A DNA stretch of 64,000 nucleotides, from positions 11,425 through 75,424 of IMG/VR virus record IMGVR_UViG_3300045131_002907. The stretch is one strand, 5' to 3'. The translations under genes and the position numbers were made by a program. Below, piece after piece: positions 10,560 through 59,884 of the stretch; within the stretch, counting starts at the first letter, position 1, and every line of letters starts with the position of its first letter. Under the pieces are notes generated by a model. That model ran no database searches. It was not told the DNA's origin and saw only the letters and a list, made by a program, of their open reading frames with translations. Source of the DNA: a virus.

Positions 10560-12993
10560 GATGCTACAGGTGCTCATGCGTTCCATGCAGAGCCAGGTGA
10601 ACCCGAGCTTCATGCAGAATCCGGGGTCTGCATCGGGGGCCTATCAACCAAGATTCACGGCCCCCGACATCTCGACGTCACAAGGCTTCAGTTTAGCCCA
10701 GACGTTTGGTCGTTTCGGTGAAGGCCCCGGTATGGCGGGCATGGCTGCGGACATGCTACTCCCCATGTTCTTCAAGTCTCAGGGGGGAGATGGCCTCGAT
10801 TGGCAAAACTTTGTAAATCGTATGAGCCTAGCACGGGGTGTCGCTAACCCAATACGTGAAGTCCAAGCCAGGGAGTACGCTAGGGTCAGGGCCAGTCTGG
10901 GTAATCAGGACTTGGGCAGGGCTGCGGTCAGTGCGCTAGGGATAGATCCTCAAGGCATGTTTGCCAGCACACTGATGTCCAGTGCACCCGTGCTAGATCA
11001 ACTCACAGATGGGCTGGTCTCTGACGCCGCACGCCTTATTGACCCCAATTTAATGACTACGCGTGGCAGTGACGCCCTGATGAATGCACAACGCAGTCGA
11101 AATACGATGTATCGGCTTGATAGCGCAATGGTAGGTCATCTCAAAAATACTCTACAGGAGAGGTCCAGACTTAATACCCGTGGTGAACACTACGGAAACG
11201 TGGGTGGCGATCCCAACGATTTCAAGCTCCGGGATAACGTGTTGACGTCTGGAATGAATCTTGACGATTTCTCTGCGGTCATGGCCGCCGCCGTGGACCT
11301 CAACGCGCTGGACTACTCGGGTAGTCTAGGCGGGGACAAGCTCGATGAAAAAGCAAAGGCAGCTTTAGAAGAACGCGTAGGTAAGGGCAAATATACATCG
11401 GAGCAACTGGCTGCGGAGAAGAAGGCTATACGCCTCGCCGGTGCCACCGTGCAAGGAGGCTCCAATTTGTCACGTGTGGTTGCCACTCTGGGGTCCACAC
11501 TTGGTGAGGGCATGGCAGTAGGTGAACGTGCAAATCTCGCTGCGCAACTTGGAATGGTCCCTGGCAGTAGCGCGGAAGCCTCCAACTTTCAAGACATCTT
11601 ACGAAACCTGAAGGCGCTCGGAGACGCCGCAGGAATGACATCAAAACAGATGTTAGATGCAGGTACCGCAATCACTCGTCAGTACGGTGGAAACCTGCTG
11701 TTTAACACTGCTGCAGCATCGATGGCACAAACTACTATACGCCTAACCGGCCAGTCGTTAAATGATTCAGGGATACGTGGAGGGGCGTCTGCGCTGGAAG
11801 AAGCTGGAAGTCGGCTGGCCACAGAGACCGTGCAGTCAGGGAGTTCTGATCTCACGCGTGCAATGGTGTATGGGTATGCGTCACCAGAGCATCGCAAAGT
11901 GATCAAGGCAGCACTTCAGGACCCCCAAAACGGGGGTAGGATGATCATGGACTATCTGCGGACCCCTGAGGGGATGGGGCTCATAGCTGGTTCCCGCAAT
12001 TTAACAGGCTCAATGGTAAATGATGGCATAAACACACTCAGAGCTATGGGGCATGATGTCAATTCGACTGCGTCCGACGCTATATCAGCAGGCTACGTTG
12101 AAAATCTCAAGCGTTCCAGTCATGTCACACACGAAGGCAAGAAAATTGATCTGGTGGGTCTCTATACCAAGTTCGTTGGTATGGATCTCCCGACTTCGGA
12201 GGCACTGTGGTCTCTTGGAACCAATGCTGTGCAAACCGACGAGGCGGAGGAGAAGTTTAATAAACTCGCGAAGCAGACCGGGCTGAATCTCACGCGCCCC
12301 CAATTATTGGCGGCTATGGTAAGTGGCGAGCAACAGTTAAGTAGCGCGGTATTCCGTTACAACGCCGCGAGAGGTAAAAGGGATCGCAAGCCGGAGCAAG
12401 AAGAAGCTGTTATCAAACAGCAGATAGCTGAGTTGGTGACTGGTACGCTGAACCAAGCCGGAGTGGGTGGGGTACTCGACCAGGTGAGAGGTGGTAAATT
12501 TGATCCCATGAAAGGGGAAAACTGGAAGGCGCTTTTGGACAAATCAAACCTCGCGCTACCCGCTGACCGTGCAAATTTCTTAACCACGTTAGAGGGTGCT
12601 GACAGGAATCGGCTAGATCAATCGAAATCCATACTTGTCGATTTTGTAGCTGCCAGAGATGCCATGTCAGCTGCAAATGGCAACCCTGATAAGATAACAT
12701 CGCTGGCACCTGCACTCGAGAAAGCCGCCGCAAGAGTGAGGAGTGAGCTCGGATTCGAGCCTATAACTGGTTTGAGTGGACTTGGGAAACCAGGCGGCGG
12801 GGCGCAGCCTGTTTCCGGGAATGAGAAGAAGGAGAAGAAGGAGAATTATGAGATAGCGATAACTGTGCACGTTGAAGCCTCAAAACTTATAGATACATAT
12901 TTGACAGCGAGTGAAACCCCCTCCGCTAATAGGGCTGATTTTACAAGTGGGTTGAATAGTGCGCGTCTTACACTAAGGCCGGGGGAGAGGTGA
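10531..12993 (+). CDS. Tape measure-like protein
   Basis: 820 aa, rich in Ala/Gly/Met/Leu, helical, located after the chaperone pair. Confidence 0.6.
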   Translation: METTGPLSPEMLQVLMRSMQSQVNPSFMQNPGSASGAYQPRFTAPDISTSQGFSLAQTFGRFGEGPGMAGMAADMLLPMFFKSQGGDGLDWQNFVNRMSLARGVANPIREVQAREYARVRASLGNQDLGRAAVSALGIDPQGMFASTLMSSAPVLDQLTDGLVSDAARLIDPNLMTTRGSDALMNAQRSRNTMYRLDSAMVGHLKNTLQERSRLNTRGEHYGNVGGDPNDFKLRDNVLTSGMNLDDFSAVMAAAVDLNALDYSGSLGGDKLDEKAKAALEERVGKGKYTSEQLAAEKKAIRLAGATVQGGSNLSRVVATLGSTLGEGMAVGERANLAAQLGMVPGSSAEASNFQDILRNLKALGDAAGMTSKQMLDAGTAITRQYGGNLLFNTAAASMAQTTIRLTGQSLNDSGIRGGASALEEAGSRLATETVQSGSSDLTRAMVYGYASPEHRKVIKAALQDPQNGGRMIMDYLRTPEGMGLIAGSRNLTGSMVNDGINTLRAMGHDVNSTASDAISAGYVENLKRSSHVTHEGKKIDLVGLYTKFVGMDLPTSEALWSLGTNAVQTDEAEEKFNKLAKQTGLNLTRPQLLAAMVSGEQQLSSAVFRYNAARGKRDRKPEQEEAVIKQQIAELVTGTLNQAGVGGVLDQVRGGKFDPMKGENWKALLDKSNLALPADRANFLTTLEGADRNRLDQSKSILVDFVAARDAMSAANGNPDKITSLAPALEKAAARVRSELGFEPITGLSGLGKPGGGAQPVSGNEKKEKKENYEIAITVHVEASKLIDTYLTASETPSANRADFTSGLNSARLTLRPGER

Positions 12994-55208: not shown

Positions 55209-57598
55209 CATTGCGCAACTACTGCCAGCACGAGGACGTCACCGTTGAACTCGGCGCCGGCCTCAATGGCATCATTGGATCCAATGGTCGCGGGAAGTCC
55301 AACTTCCTCGACGCCATCCGATTCCTGCTCACCGGGGAATCCAACAACCCCGGCAAGAAGGAAGACAATCTCCGCTGGGGTGCGAAGACCGGCTGGGTTG
55401 AGGGCACCATCCGTTTCGGGGATACAGATTACTACCTGAAGCGGTGGATTACCTCGGCGAAGGCCGAGATGTCCTGGAAGGACAACACCGGTGGTGAACA
55501 GAAGCTCACCAAGGTTGCCGAGATACAGAACACCCTCAACGCCCTCACGGGATCCACTGCCAAGGTTCTCCTCGATGCAGTCTTGGTCCCCCAGGGTGCC
55601 ATCAACGCCGTACTCTTCCAGCGCCCCGGGGATCGCCTCAAGGAGTTCCAACGCGTCTTCGGTCTCCAGGGGGTCGCCGATGCCCATCGCTATCTCGGCG
55701 AGGAAGCCGCGAAGTACACGTTGACCCCAGGGCTCTCCCAGGCCCTCAAGGATTCCGCTCAGTTGCTCACCGCGGCGAAAGTGGAGGTCTTGGTCTCCCA
55801 GGAGACCTGTGCAGCCGGCAAGGCAGCCATTGAGGCCCTGGTACCAGCGGAGGATGTCCTGAGACGTGCAGATGCCGCACAACGCCATGGCGCCGCTTTG
55901 GCCCAGGCCACGGGTCGGCATCAAGCCGCACTCCAGGCCCAGGCCACGGCGCGTTCCGAGCTCGCCGCGGCAACAGCAGCCCTGGAGGCCAGGGTTGTCC
56001 AGGGGCTCACTGAAAAAGCGGACGCGATGCGGCAGCGTCGGGCTCAGATCGAAGTCGCGCTTTCCCAGGTCAGCCAACGCCAGAACGCGGCGGCTGCAGT
56101 GGCGGCTTATCAGGCCACTCTGCTCATGAACCCTGAGGTCACCGCAGAGGAAGGCCAGGCCGCGGAGGCCGCAGCGGCCACTGCGGCCGCTGAACTCGCC
56201 ACTGCGGAGAACGCGGCACGGGGTAACCGTGCCCAGACCCCCGCGGAGATCGAAGCCAAGGCAGCCCAGGAAGCCGCGACACGAGCCCTCGACGAAGCCA
56301 AGGCCCGGAATGTTCTCACCGATGCCGATCTCGTGGCATGGTCAGCGGAGATCAACCGGCGCACCGGTGATATCCAGGGTTTCGAGACCGGGTTCTGTCC
56401 GACTTGCAAACAGGAGGTCAAAGGGGGCCCCGCGCACATCGCCGCGATTCGTGCCTCGATCACTGAACTCACCATACAGCGGGAGAAGCGTCGATCCGAA
56501 CTCGAGTTCGCCAGGGGAGAAGAGATCAACCGGTGCATGGGTGACGTGCAGACCGCCGCTGCGAGAGTTCATGCGATCGCAGTCCAGGCCGCAGCATTCT
56601 TCAGCGAGCATCTCAAGGCGGCGACGGCGAAGGCAAATGCGGCATCCGCGGATCTCACGGCGAAGCGGAATGCGGCGTATAAGCGCCACCAGGCCCTCGC
56701 CGGACTCCAGTCCAGTAAGCAACTCCTGGAATCCCTGGGTGGGGTGGCCGCACCGGCTCCAGATGCGATCGAAACCATTGATCGTGAACTCGCCCAGATC
56801 AGGGCTGCCCTGGATGCCCACGCAGGACTCCAGCGCACCCGGGATGCCGCTGTGGTCAAGTTGACTTCAGCTGACAACGAGGTGGCCTCCGCGGAATCCG
56901 CGGTGATCGCCTTGGGTAAGCAGCTCGATGCCCCGAGCCCCCAGGAAGTCGATGCCGCTGTAGCGGATACCAGACGACTCGCCGAGCTCCGGAAGTCGCA
57001 GGCCCAGATCGAGGCCACCCATGCCGCCAATGTTGCCTCGGTGACCATGCGTCAAAGCGAGGCCAACCGTCTCGCGGAGACCGCGCGTCGTGAAGCCCGG
57101 GATCAAGCCTGGGTGGAAACCGTCAACAAGGTCCGTGATATCCTGCATCCCACCAATTTGCCAGCAGTGGCCATGCGGGAGTATGCCGCGATCATCAATA
57201 ACCAGTTGGGGTGGTATCTCGATAAGTGGAATGCCCCATTCCGGCTCTGGATCAATGAGAACATGGAGTTCCGTGCTCTGAAGCCAGATGAAAACGGTGC
57301 CGAAGCCGAAATGGACGCCGCCCGTCTCAGCGGTGGCGAACAAATCGTGGGATCCTCGAGCTTCCGGGTTGCGATGTCAGATACCTTTGCCAGGAATGCT
57401 GGGCTCATCGTTCTCGACGAACCCAGCAGCTACCTCGACAAAACCAATATCCACAATCTGCAAACCGTGCTGCTCGAGCTCAAGAAGGTTTCAGCGGCGA
57501 GTCATCGACAGGTCATCGTGGTCACCCATGAGGCCTCTCTCATGGGATTCTTTGATCAAACCGTAACCATTGGAAACAATGCCGCGTTGGCCTCCTGA
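55190..57598 (+). CDS. sbcC: SbcC/Rad50-like SMC ATPase
   Basis: Walker A GSNGRGKS, Q-loop, CPTC zinc hook, LSGGE signature, LDEP Walker B, VTH. Confidence 0.92.
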   Translation: MFIKTVTLRNYCQHEDVTVELGAGLNGIIGSNGRGKSNFLDAIRFLLTGESNNPGKKEDNLRWGAKTGWVEGTIRFGDTDYYLKRWITSAKAEMSWKDNTGGEQKLTKVAEIQNTLNALTGSTAKVLLDAVLVPQGAINAVLFQRPGDRLKEFQRVFGLQGVADAHRYLGEEAAKYTLTPGLSQALKDSAQLLTAAKVEVLVSQETCAAGKAAIEALVPAEDVLRRADAAQRHGAALAQATGRHQAALQAQATARSELAAATAALEARVVQGLTEKADAMRQRRAQIEVALSQVSQRQNAAAAVAAYQATLLMNPEVTAEEGQAAEAAAATAAAELATAENAARGNRAQTPAEIEAKAAQEAATRALDEAKARNVLTDADLVAWSAEINRRTGDIQGFETGFCPTCKQEVKGGPAHIAAIRASITELTIQREKRRSELEFARGEEINRCMGDVQTAAARVHAIAVQAAAFFSEHLKAATAKANAASADLTAKRNAAYKRHQALAGLQSSKQLLESLGGVAAPAPDAIETIDRELAQIRAALDAHAGLQRTRDAAVVKLTSADNEVASAESAVIALGKQLDAPSPQEVDAAVADTRRLAELRKSQAQIEATHAANVASVTMRQSEANRLAETARREARDQAWVETVNKVRDILHPTNLPAVAMREYAAIINNQLGWYLDKWNAPFRLWINENMEFRALKPDENGAEAEMDAARLSGGEQIVGSSSFRVAMSDTFARNAGLIVLDEPSSYLDKTNIHNLQTVLLELKKVSAASHRQVIVVTHEASLMGFFDQTVTIGNNAALAS

Positions 57599-57622
57599 GG
57601 TCCATCGCGGCGAGGAGTCGCG

Positions 57623-59884
57623 ATGAAAGCAGTGCTGACATATCTGGGGCGCATGCTCTCCCTGAGCCCGGCGCCCCTTGGAAAACAGTTCGAGGATTCC
57701 TGTGTGGTCACCAGGATGATTCAGGTCAATGCTTGTGCTGAGAACGGGTGGCGACAATCCAGGAAACCAGAGGACCACACCCTGTACTGGTATGACACCC
57801 AACCCGATGGTACCCCGGTATTCGTGACCTACTCGGGCTACGGGTACCGGATCCATGCTGAACTCACCAGGCAAGGCCATGAAGTCGAGGTCAGGGACTT
57901 CACCCCGTGTGGGCTCCCGGATCCAGAACTCACCAGACTTCAGGGGATCTCTTGGCGGGGATCCCAGGCCGACGTGGTCTGCAAGCTCCTCGCCAATAGG
58001 TGTGGGGTCATCGATTGCCCCACCGGATGGGGCAAGAGTTTTATCATCCGAATGATTGTGCGGGCATACCCCAATTCCTTGATTGGGGTCACTGTTCCTA
58101 GCACGGATGTCGCCAAAGAAATATATGAGGCCTTGGTCCCCGAGCTCGGATACTCAGTGGGCATCGTGGGTGGAGGTAAGCACAAGCAGCGAAGGGTAAC
58201 CGTAGCGGTTACACACTCGTTGTTAAAGTTGGATCCCAACATCAACTTGCTGATGACCGATGAGTGCTTTGTAGGGGATACTCTGGTGGCGACTCCACGT
58301 GGGCCGGTCACGATTGACAGTGTGCGCAGCGGAGATACTGTGTGCGTAGCCACCGGAACTGGACAAGTCCAGGCAACCTCCGTTAGGCAGACTTTGGAGG
58401 TATGCCATGTTGCGTTTACTGACGGAAGCTCAGTTACTACCACTCCTACCCACCCTTTTTTCACAGAGAGGGGATGGGTACGCGCGGGAGAGCTGGAAGT
58501 CGGACAGATGTTATTCCGCCAGGAAGACATGTGCGTATTGCGGTGTGGTATTCTCCCCGGTGTACCCATCGGGGAGAAGGGAGCCGGAGCACACGTGGAA
58601 ACTGCGAATGTGCTGCTCGAACTCCTGCGCAAAGAAGTTAAAGAACCCAATGCACAACCCAGAGTCACGCGCGAAGATGGCACGCCGGTTATCGGCGATA
58701 GGGCATCAACCACGCGTACGCGGGGGGAACGGGAAGGGGATGACAGCCCCGCAATCAGCTCTATTGGGTGCGTTAGGGGAGGGCTGGTTACCGGAGTTCG
58801 TTGTTCTAACAAGGAAGCCAAGGACCTCCGGGTTTCCAGGCCATTACAAGATCGATATTGCGAACCCTGGTCTGATGATAGCGCTGGAAATCGACGGGAG
58901 GGGTCACCAGTCATTATCTCGCCGGCGGCAGGATCTGAAGAAGGCGACGTTGCTAACTGCCTTAGGGTGGCGGGTATTACACTTGAAAAACTCTCTAGCC
59001 CTCGAGTTGTCTTCAACCTCGCAGTGTCTGGGCACCCTTCTTACTATGCTGGGGGAGTGTTAGTTCACAACTGTCATGCCGTGCTTACCCCAAACTTCAT
59101 CGACATGTTCAATCGGTTCCCCCGCGCCAAGTTCCAGGCATTCACGGCTACCCCCAAGGGACGCAGTGATGGCGCCGATGGGTTCATGGAGGCCTTGTTC
59201 GGACCCGTGATCCACCATGTCCCCTATCAGGAGGCCGTGGAGTCCGGGAACATCTGCCAACTCAGGTATCGGGTCTACGAGAGTAAGATTGGACCCGATG
59301 TCACCGGGATGACCAATAAGGTCGCCAAGGATCGCGTCGCGGTCTGGCGTAATAAGGCGCGCAATGATTTGATTGCGCATGCGGTGAGGCGTGCAGAGAT
59401 CACTGAAGCCCCGGATCCCCAGATCCTGATCATGGTGGAGAAAACGGAACACGCCTTCCTGCTTCAGCAGGTCCTCCCCGAGTTTGTGGTCGTCACCGGT
59501 GAACTCGACGACGACAAGGAAGCGCGGCTGCGCAAAGTTGGGTCCATGCAGAGCACGCAGTCGGCGCCATCCAAAGATGACTGTGCTCGAATGAAGAAAG
59601 AGTTCTCAGCGGGAACCCTCCGCAAAGTCATCGCGACGTATAAGTGGTCCAAGGGGGTCAACTTCTTGGGCCTCGATGTCCTCGTCCGCGCCGAGGGCAC
59701 CTCAACTGAGATCGCGAGTGGTCAGGTCCCCGGGCGTCTGAGTCGTAAGGGCCACGATGGCAAAAAGGAGTATGGACTCCTCATCGATTTCAACGATGTC
59801 TTCAGCACGGATATGAAGGCGCGTTCAGCGAATCGCTTCAAGGTCTACAAGCGGAATGGCTGGATCTACGAGGTGGGCTCATGA
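57623..59884 (+). CDS. Superfamily 2 DNA helicase (UvsW-like) containing an intein
   Basis: PTGWGKS, DE|CH (Walker B restored after splicing), TATP, QxxGRLSR. Confidence 0.9.
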   Translation: MKAVLTYLGRMLSLSPAPLGKQFEDSCVVTRMIQVNACAENGWRQSRKPEDHTLYWYDTQPDGTPVFVTYSGYGYRIHAELTRQGHEVEVRDFTPCGLPDPELTRLQGISWRGSQADVVCKLLANRCGVIDCPTGWGKSFIIRMIVRAYPNSLIGVTVPSTDVAKEIYEALVPELGYSVGIVGGGKHKQRRVTVAVTHSLLKLDPNINLLMTDECFVGDTLVATPRGPVTIDSVRSGDTVCVATGTGQVQATSVRQTLEVCHVAFTDGSSVTTTPTHPFFTERGWVRAGELEVGQMLFRQEDMCVLRCGILPGVPIGEKGAGAHVETANVLLELLRKEVKEPNAQPRVTREDGTPVIGDRASTTRTRGEREGDDSPAISSIGCVRGGLVTGVRCSNKEAKDLRVSRPLQDRYCEPWSDDSAGNRREGSPVIISPAAGSEEGDVANCLRVAGITLEKLSSPRVVFNLAVSGHPSYYAGGVLVHNCHAVLTPNFIDMFNRFPRAKFQAFTATPKGRSDGADGFMEALFGPVIHHVPYQEAVESGNICQLRYRVYESKIGPDVTGMTNKVAKDRVAVWRNKARNDLIAHAVRRAEITEAPDPQILIMVEKTEHAFLLQQVLPEFVVVTGELDDDKEARLRKVGSMQSTQSAPSKDDCARMKKEFSAGTLRKVIATYKWSKGVNFLGLDVLVRAEGTSTEIASGQVPGRLSRKGHDGKKEYGLLIDFNDVFSTDMKARSANRFKVYKRNGWIYEVGS
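58265..59071 (+). mobile_element. Intein (269 aa) inserted in helicase motif II
   Basis: N-terminal CFVGDTLV, block B TPTHPF, block F VFNLAVSGHPSYYA, C-terminal VHN followed by Cys+1. Confidence 0.93.
58407..59063 (+). CDS. Zn-finger/Vsr-like (DUF559-type) endonuclease nested in the +1 frame of the intein
   Basis: SD GGAGGT 5 nt before the ATG. Motifs CAYC...CSNSC and YKIDIA...IALEIDGRGH...QDLKK...LGWRVLHL. Confidence 0.85.
   Translation: MLRLLTEAQLLPLLPTLFSQRGDGYARESWKSDRCYSARKTCAYCGVVFSPVYPSGRREPEHTWKLRMCCSNSCAKKLKNPMHNPESRAKMARRLSAIGHQPRVRGGNGKGMTAPQSALLGALGEGWLPEFVVLTRKPRTSGFPGHYKIDIANPGLMIALEIDGRGHQSLSRRRQDLKKATLLTALGWRVLHLKNSLALELSSTSQCLGTLLTMLGEC

Follow-up and report, generated by a model that had tools for sequence, protein, structure and literature searches.

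In a 64,000-nucleotide (nt) stretch of viral DNA (positions 11,425 to 75,424 of the IMG/VR record IMGVR_UViG_3300045131_002907; hereafter the window), a gene for a superfamily 2 (SF2) DNA helicase is interrupted at the DE^CH of motif II by a 269-amino-acid (aa) intein, and the centre of this intein is overlapped, on the same strand and in the +1 frame, by a separate gene for a predicted Vsr-like nuclease of 218 aa. The same layout recurs in a large family of phage helicase inteins, the two reading frames differ in what is conserved along the element, and alleles with and without it occur together. We consider it highly probable that the element, which lies in a phage SF2 helicase, is a class-1 intein that is mobile and splices in cis, and that its homing endonuclease is made as a free protein from the nested +1-frame gene.

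The helicase intein and the gene nested within it

A first-pass annotation, made from the sequence alone, had described a 269-aa intein splitting a helicase DECH motif, a 218-aa open reading frame (ORF) of the +1 frame lying wholly inside the intein and stopping 8 nt before its end, and an internal Shine-Dalgarno (SD) sequence, GGAGGT, embedded in intein codons. All three are present (Table 1). The source record is a 75-kb IMG/VR virus record with a CheckV completeness estimate of 35%. The precursor ORF matched the DNA helicases of PHROG 16 (E = 1.3e-34) and, weakly, the ResIII, DEAD and SWI2_SNF2 families of Pfam; homologous host ORFs match ResIII and Helicase_C. Its junctions read ...LLMTDE^CFVGDTLV...GGVLVHN^CHAVL..., and homologues of the helicase that have no intein are 484 aa long, which is 753 minus 269.

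The in-frame translation of the intein matched only HINT families in Pfam (PT-HINT at 41.9 bits, with a cut-off of 27.7, plus Intein_splicing and Hint_2), and no LAGLIDADG or HNH match was found in it, as the first-pass annotation had supposed. Residues C1, T60, H63, H268 and N269 are invariant across 15 relatives. When the intein was modelled with AlphaFold2 (AF2) using these 15 relatives, residues 1-95 and 230-269 were predicted as beta-strands with a pLDDT (predicted local distance difference test) score above 90; these parts fit what is expected of a HINT domain, a fit judged on the model itself rather than by comparison with solved structures. For residues 130-229 the pLDDT was ~28. Thus, the in-frame centre of the intein is predicted to be disordered, consistent with the earlier impression that it reads as off-frame text.

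The nested ORF ends in a TAG stop codon. In Pfam it matched DUF559 (PF04480) at 21.9 bits, with a gathering threshold of 20.6, and MTES_1575 was also matched. Protein homologues were found in 19 clusters among 5.8 billion (best E = 6.8e-53; 46-53% identity), and PF04480 and PF18741 are present in most of them. An AF2 model based on a 34-sequence alignment reached a pLDDT of 85.9. With VIA-align, residues 107-218 of this model could be superimposed on the DUF559 structure 3HRL (Z = 10.3; root-mean-square deviation 2.7 over 86 aligned residues), on Vsr (1CW0; Z = 9.6) and on the homing endonuclease I-Bth0305I (3R3P; Z = 9.1). A Foldseek search of the PDB with the model gave no match at E <= 0.001, with 3R3P and 3HRL at the head of the list, and the profile of the nuclease family matched 3hrl (E = 6e-9) and 3r3p (E = 4.7e-3) among PDB sequences.

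Within the family, D150, E161, D163, H167, D176 and K179 are invariant and E130 is nearly so. A hidden Markov model alignment pairs H167 with H213 of I-Bth0305I and D176 with D222, which are respectively the general base and a metal ligand of that enzyme (Taylor et al. 2011, PMC3239194); judged by position in the fold, not by residue alignment, D150 would correspond to D196 and E130 to E170. The I-Bth0305I counterparts of the catalytic Asp, His and Asp are residues whose mutation had served to inactivate that enzyme. N-terminal to this predicted catalytic domain, C42 and C45 of a putative zinc ribbon are invariant in 16 loci and C70 and C74 nearly so, and the family profile matched zinc ribbons of the L24e type (E = 0.004-0.007). 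Between the two, the family shows almost no variation at N80 and P81 and none at G106-G109. Note that the first-pass annotation had called this linker (NPMHNPESRAKM) NUMOD-like; no NUMOD family was matched in Pfam at E <= 1, and that label was not confirmed, although hardly any family member deviates from the NPM motif. The assignment of a Vsr/DUF559-type core, by contrast, is borne out by the Pfam match and by the structural comparisons. Taken together, the homologues, the AF2 model, the Vsr/DUF559/I-Bth0305I fold and the conserved catalytic residues identify the +1 ORF, at the level of sequence and model, as a real nuclease gene with predicted activity, and the structural modelling of both frames that the first-pass annotation had proposed thus gave a nuclease fold for one frame and a disordered centre for the other.

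Table 1. Features of the intein-containing helicase gene (positions in the window).
Feature	Coordinates	Strand	Basis
Helicase precursor ORF, SF2/UvsW-like DNA helicase interrupted by the intein, 753 aa	57623..59884	+	ORF list; PHROG 16 DNA helicase
N-extein, ending ...LLMTDE (Walker B / motif II)	57623..58264	+	Junction backed by empty alleles L026 and L027 and the X1 contig
Class-1 intein, 269 aa	58265..59071	+	Cys1, block B TPTH (T-x-x-H), C-terminal His-Asn, +1 Cys (C of DECH); PT-HINT
SD-like GGAGGT, 5 nt before the nuclease ATG	58396..58401	+	Made of intein codons Leu-Glu-Val (TTG GAG GTA)
Nested +1-frame gene, 218-aa Vsr-like (EDxHD/DUF559) homing endonuclease (predicted)	58407..59063	+	ORF, homologues, AF2, purifying selection
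Putative zinc ribbon CxxC...CxxxC (C42, C45, C70, C74 of the nuclease)	58530..58628	+	Conservation; L24e-type profile matches
Host-frame intein linker, residues ~96-229: the nuclease gene read out of frame, maintained only in being free of stops	58550..58951	+	AF2, identity, codon-position variability
Linker presumed to bind DNA, nuclease residues 80-109, with a conserved NPM...R.K helix and an invariant GGNG	58644..58733	+	Conservation; model helix 85-97
Nuclease catalytic domain (predicted), residues 107-218, with D150, E161, D163, H167, D176, K179	58725..59060	+	VIA-align, Foldseek, profile against PDB
C-extein, beginning CHAVLTPNF...	59072..59884	+	Sequence; protein identity 99% to L026 and 94% to L027 (both intein-less)

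Selection on the two frames and recurrence of the layout

The first-pass annotation had proposed a dual-coding element in which both frames stay open. We shuffled the synonymous codons of the nuclease ORF and then counted stop codons in the host frame. In 2000 shuffles of the window ORF the mean number of host-frame stops was 5.0, compared to none observed (P(no stop) = 0.001); because of this value, the openness of both frames in the window cannot be put down to chance. The third frame of the window contains 14 stops, compared to 16.5 expected. Consistent with what we found in the window, host-frame stops were absent from 16/16 non-redundant diverged loci, in which 4.6-19.6 were expected (P(0) <= 0.003 for each), and the stop count of the third frame across these loci was as expected.

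Codon-position variability differs along the element. In the nuclease core, variability was 0.41, 0.36 and 0.63 at nuclease codon positions 1, 2 and 3, so that, counted in the host frame, variability is greatest at position 1 and smallest at position 3; in the flanking splicing domain and the exteins it is host position 3 that varies most (0.71-0.72). Recent comparisons can be read directly. Between L102 and L106 there are 24 nucleotide changes, 20 of them at nuclease position 3, which alter 4 amino acids in the nuclease frame and 19 in the host frame, and the 5 changes between L035 and L038 alter 0 and 5, respectively. Mean pairwise identity was highest in the nuclease core (48%), lower in the splicing domains (34%) and lowest in the host-frame linker (23%), which is the same DNA as the nuclease frame. 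Distances of the nuclease and of the splicing domain are correlated (rho 0.56, over pairs that are non-independent), which is only a hint that the two have been inherited together. These patterns support purifying selection that in the centre acts on the nuclease frame and towards both ends on the host frame, with the central host frame apparently needing only to be free of stops, and they agree with the per-frame conservation that had been predicted from the window. The family offers a clean natural case of selection that acts on one frame solely for stop-freedom.

We also considered whether a further coding layer exists on the opposite strand. A 358-aa antisense ORF (57940-59016, minus strand) covers the N-extein together with most of the intein; in 15 relatives the same phase stays open over just 25-145 codons, and we rejected this ORF, which judging from these sequences is probably a chance one.

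A first scan of IMG/VR yielded 21 related loci, 19 of which have the nuclease ORF within an open frame of 430-1170 codons and in the +1 relation to it. A wider scan, with a 16-row alignment (A5), yielded 365 relatives, of which the best 80 (64 distinct) were inspected; in 80/80 of these the nuclease gene is nested, in the +1 frame, within an open host frame, as had been anticipated for homologous inteins. No host-frame stop across the element was found in the window or in these 80, nor, with it, the combination of a stop and a Met restart that marks a fractured gene. Among the 64 distinct loci, the upstream junction is DE^C in 54 and the downstream junction HN^CH in 58. The hosts are mostly ResIII/Helicase_C helicases, but also include helicase-methylase fusions and one clamp-loader-like AAA+ ATPase (L018), and nearly all are split at DE^CH. 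Three contigs of metagenome-assembled genomes (MAGs) have the same nested +1 layout, and so do three finished genomes of cultured phages in which only the helicase is annotated, namely Vibrio phage CP-T1 (gp10), Pseudomonas phage MR14 (gp44) and Corynebacterium phage phi673 (gp43).

These findings bear on whether the layout might be an artefact, that is, whether two compensating sequencing or assembly frameshifts mask an ordinary intein with an in-frame endonuclease, or whether the +1 ORF is open by chance. Nothing speaks for this beyond the origin of the window in a metagenome assembly. Against it, the same frame relation is found in all of the independent contigs inspected, in finished genomes of cultured phages and in the three MAGs; contigs of two separate studies show no difference over the start region; both a start and a stop belonging to the nuclease ORF lie inside the intein; and a chance ORF is excluded by the homology, the fold and the codon-position statistics. 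Moreover, a genuine in-frame version exists and looks different. In L019 and L020 the nuclease core (GGNG and HYKIDIAN) lies in frame within an intein of a UvrD-like helicase (DE^C...HN^CQ; L019:2795-5305), the zinc-ribbon/NPM part is absent from this fused form, and the other two frames are closed. We regard the artefact as refuted. By its sequence, the intein of L019 and L020 is built in canonical style, its endonuclease domain being Vsr-like; a Vsr-like form outside split inteins had not been reported earlier, according to a 2025 preprint (bioRxiv 10.1101/2025.01.02.630785).

Several loci depart from the common arrangement. One helicase ORF (L015:2140-5652) contains two inteins: an HNH_3 domain (residues 200-411) lies in frame in the upstream one, and the second is a DE^CH intein with a nested +1 Vsr-like gene. 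In a Nitrospirales MAG contig (L030:2-6613), an SNF2/methylase-like ORF of more than 2200 aa has a nested-nuclease intein after DEGH, one residue beyond the usual DE^CH. At L009:3983-4981 the nuclease-frame ORF continues for ~100 codons beyond the intein end (CLVHN^SS) and overlaps the C-extein of a helicase-methylase. In Proteus phage PM2 (MF001355.1, 101152-103437) and likewise in Salmonella phage CF-SP2 (OM912978.1, 156113-158422), the helicase match falls into two pieces, annotated uvsW_1 and uvsW_2 or each as 'DNA helicase', that flank a hypothetical protein; this could be a fractured-gene or an intron arrangement.

The nesting in the +1 frame may be the ancestral, long-kept state of the whole clade (at least 365 IMG/VR loci, with the best 80 inspected, and divergence to ~35% identity) and not a transient accident, a proposition that we hold to be evenly balanced. 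If it is true, the nested form, the split forms of Dassa et al. and the in-frame derivative in the UvrD-like helicases (L019/L020) would represent, within one nuclease family, three stages on the way from a free-standing endonuclease to an intein domain.

Proposed expression of the nuclease and mobility of the element

We propose that the helicase mRNA would be translated in two ways. Translation in frame 0 would produce the 753-aa precursor, in which the HINT halves (residues 1-95 and 230-269) would fold around a disordered, off-frame linker of ~130 residues and splice in cis to leave the 484-aa helicase. Other ribosomes would initiate at the internal GGAGGT-N5-ATG and synthesize the free 218-aa protein, made up of the zinc ribbon, the NPM/GGNG linker and the Vsr-like EDxHD nuclease. 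This nuclease would cut intein-less helicase alleles near DE^CH, and recombinational repair would then copy the intein, together with its nested gene, into the cut allele.

The GAGGT part of the SD-like motif comes from matching intein Glu-Val codons (GAG GTN) in L001, L002, L007 and Vibrio phage CP-T1 as well, and is a trait of the window's subfamily. An SD-like 4-mer is located at -18 to -4 of the first start codon in 34 of the 64 distinct loci and, depending on the strictness of scoring, a suitably spaced SD-like motif is present in about half to two thirds of the loci. An ATG, GTG or TTG comes shortly after a nuclease-frame stop in almost all of the loci examined. One subfamily has the nuclease start ahead of block B of the intein, at an offset of 142-157 nt, and in the second subfamily, at 217-316 nt, the start follows block B.

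These features also speak to the idea that the nuclease is produced by a programmed +1 ribosomal frameshift, as an N-intein-nuclease fusion instead of a free protein with its own start. In the window, the 19 codons that precede the ATG (58350-58406) contain no stop in the +1 frame, and a shift there would give such a fusion; the absence or poor spacing of SD-like motifs in some relatives would suit this idea too. However, many relatives (L007, L014, L018, L005 and CP-T1 among them) have a nuclease-frame stop directly or a few codons upstream of the start, which leaves no room for a shift site; the displacement of the start relative to block B between subfamilies fits an independent gene; and no frame-0 stop or hungry-codon context for a +1 shift was seen. 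On this evidence a frameshift seems very improbable to us.

That the gene would escape standard gene callers had been suggested at the outset, and it does: the nuclease is found in 19 protein clusters as against 365 relatives at the DNA level in IMG/VR, and the annotation over the match in 40 phage records is a helicase or an unnamed protein only. Gene callers and GenBank annotators thus overlook the nested nuclease gene. Since the nuclease is unannotated even in phages represented in RefSeq/GenBank (CP-T1, MR14 and phi673), censuses of phage mobile elements undercount homing endonucleases.

Two phage contigs closely related to the window have no element. L026, with flanks 94-97% identical at the nucleotide level, reads GATGAA TGT CAT (DECH), and L027, 88% identical, reads GATGAG GCC CAC (DEAH); in both, the breakpoints coincide exactly with 58265 and 59071, and 807 nt are absent. 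Moreover, both alleles were found in one lake-water run (X1), the probable source of the window, in which the intein-containing allele has a depth of 13.5 and a contig skipping 58265-59071 (807 nt) has a depth of 3.9. Thus, intein-plus and intein-minus alleles coexist in one lake sample. The DEAH allele is also present in a soil run, and a lake run of another study contains an identical piece of the intein that includes the nuclease start. When compared to L026, the N-extein (642 nt) is 11.7% diverged, as against ~1% upstream of the helicase start and ~2-3% in the C-extein, so that the divergent tract is sharply bounded; this fits, and does not prove, co-conversion from a diverged donor during homing. 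A separate 151-nt contig from a soil run (X3) shares with the intein no more than its final 42 nt (59029-59070, block F/G), is unrelated to the window on both sides, and presumably belongs to a related intein in another gene.

A different account of the element is that the nested gene is a relic, inherited vertically without homing, with both frames open for lack of time to decay or with the nuclease co-opted. The element occurs as a single copy in the 75-kb record, where no further copies were found, and the presence/absence polymorphism may reflect loss, both of which would be in keeping with a relic. Yet the catalytic residues are invariant among relatives that are only 34-50% identical, purifying selection is apparent in old and in recent comparisons, the same element is found in unrelated host genes at the common DE^CH motif, and both alleles occur together in one sample. 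We therefore judge a relic to be unlikely, though the nuclease could still have been domesticated for some other role.

Some observations weigh against a mobile intein with an internally initiated nuclease. No sigma-70-like promoter was detected within 57400-59300 in a promoter scan, so that, for the nuclease to be expressed, ribosomes would have to initiate internally on an mRNA that is itself being translated, and, as mentioned, SD-like motifs are missing or poorly spaced in some relatives. The sole signal from an RNA library, two 151-nt contigs of a freshwater metatranscriptome (run X9) that are identical to 58492-58796, carries no information on strand, level or transcript ends and may stem from DNA carry-over; it is weak evidence of transcription and says little for production of the 218-aa protein. 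Ordinary mosaicism among phages could account for the divergent N-extein tract, and the presence/absence polymorphism could have arisen through precise loss, not gain. The phage carriers in culture make the uncoupled expression of nuclease and intein directly testable, and together with the natural pair of intein-plus and intein-minus alleles they would show whether homing of the intein is driven by a free nuclease produced separately from the precursor.

Comparison with known systems

The first-pass annotation had implied that the layout itself was novel. This does not hold, as out-of-frame and antisense endonuclease ORFs in inteins have already been published. Out-of-frame intein endonucleases are said to have been first described or proposed by Gorbalenya in 1998 ('Non-canonical inteins'), according to the credit given in two preprints (bioRxiv 10.1101/2025.01.02.630785 and bioRxiv 10.64898/2026.09.14.751524). 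In the first of these, Gosselin, Arsenault & Gogarten describe actinophage inteins with antisense LAGLIDADG, antisense VSR-like and frame-3 endonuclease VII-like endonucleases, and propose as their origin that a free-standing endonuclease gene invaded an intein. As in the helicase inteins, the intein is contiguous, a separate endonuclease ORF lies over its centre, and the in-frame centre has no recognisable structure. In the actinobacteriophage inteins, however, the VSR-like endonucleases are encoded on the antisense strand only, the sense out-of-frame type being endonuclease VII-like and in frame 3, and the inteins reside in genes for DNA polymerase, minor capsid, terminase and thymidylate synthase; VSR-like endonucleases are otherwise known only with split inteins, according to the same source. 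Here, the nuclease is of the Vsr-like/EDxHD type, on the sense strand and in the +1 frame, in SF2 helicases at DE^CH, and the family comprises hundreds of loci.

A second close parallel is the cyanobacterial dnaX intein, for which Phillips et al. (bioRxiv 10.64898/2026.09.14.751524) reported a +2 LAGLIDADG ORF and a frame-dependent ratio of nonsynonymous to synonymous substitution (dN/dS). Both systems have a sense overlapping endonuclease ORF with an upstream SD, a disordered in-frame region and frame-dependent selection, and in both intein-containing and intein-free alleles occur in one population. They differ in that the dnaX element is of the LAGLIDADG type, in the +2 frame and in a cellular gene, whereas the nuclease described here is Vsr-like, in the +1 frame and in phage helicases, with the relative L018 in a clamp-loader-like ATPase.

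The 'fractured genes' of Dassa et al. 2009 (PMC2677866) are split inteins with a free-standing gene for a Vsr-like or GIY-YIG endonuclease between the halves. They resemble the helicase inteins in residing in phage genes of DNA metabolism, and there the endonuclease gene extends with its 3' end into the downstream part of the intein. In fractured genes, though, the host frame is broken by a stop, a non-coding spacer of 27-51 nt and a new Met follow, and splicing occurs in trans; in the window the host frame runs unbroken through the nuclease gene, and splicing would therefore have to be in cis.

With I-Bth0305I, the EDxHD prototype (PMC3239194; PDB 3R3P), the nuclease shares the Vsr-like fold, the aligned His and metal-binding Asp, and an N-terminal part presumed to bind DNA. 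I-Bth0305I differs in being encoded by a group I intron and in having two NUMOD2 motifs and a helix-turn-helix, in place of the zinc ribbon, NPM and GGNG of the intein-borne nuclease, to which it is 15-18% identical. The ShiLan-type hidden HNH insertions in phage methylases (PMC11855218) are alike in having an out-of-frame endonuclease ORF with the host frame open across it; no splicing domains are detectable in them and the HNH is in frame 3, whereas the HINT domains of the helicase inteins are clear.

In the literature on inteins with DUF559, EDxHD or out-of-frame endonucleases, we found no report of a sense-strand +1 Vsr-like endonuclease in a contiguous intein, or of this helicase family. 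The nested layout in the window is real and well supported, and the helicase inteins form a new, large group of a kind that was already known. Within this group the overlapping layout is the rule among the best relatives inspected (80/80), which argues that out-of-frame endonuclease genes are not rare oddities, and through the same type of Vsr-like nuclease the family ties the split inteins of fractured genes to contiguous inteins.

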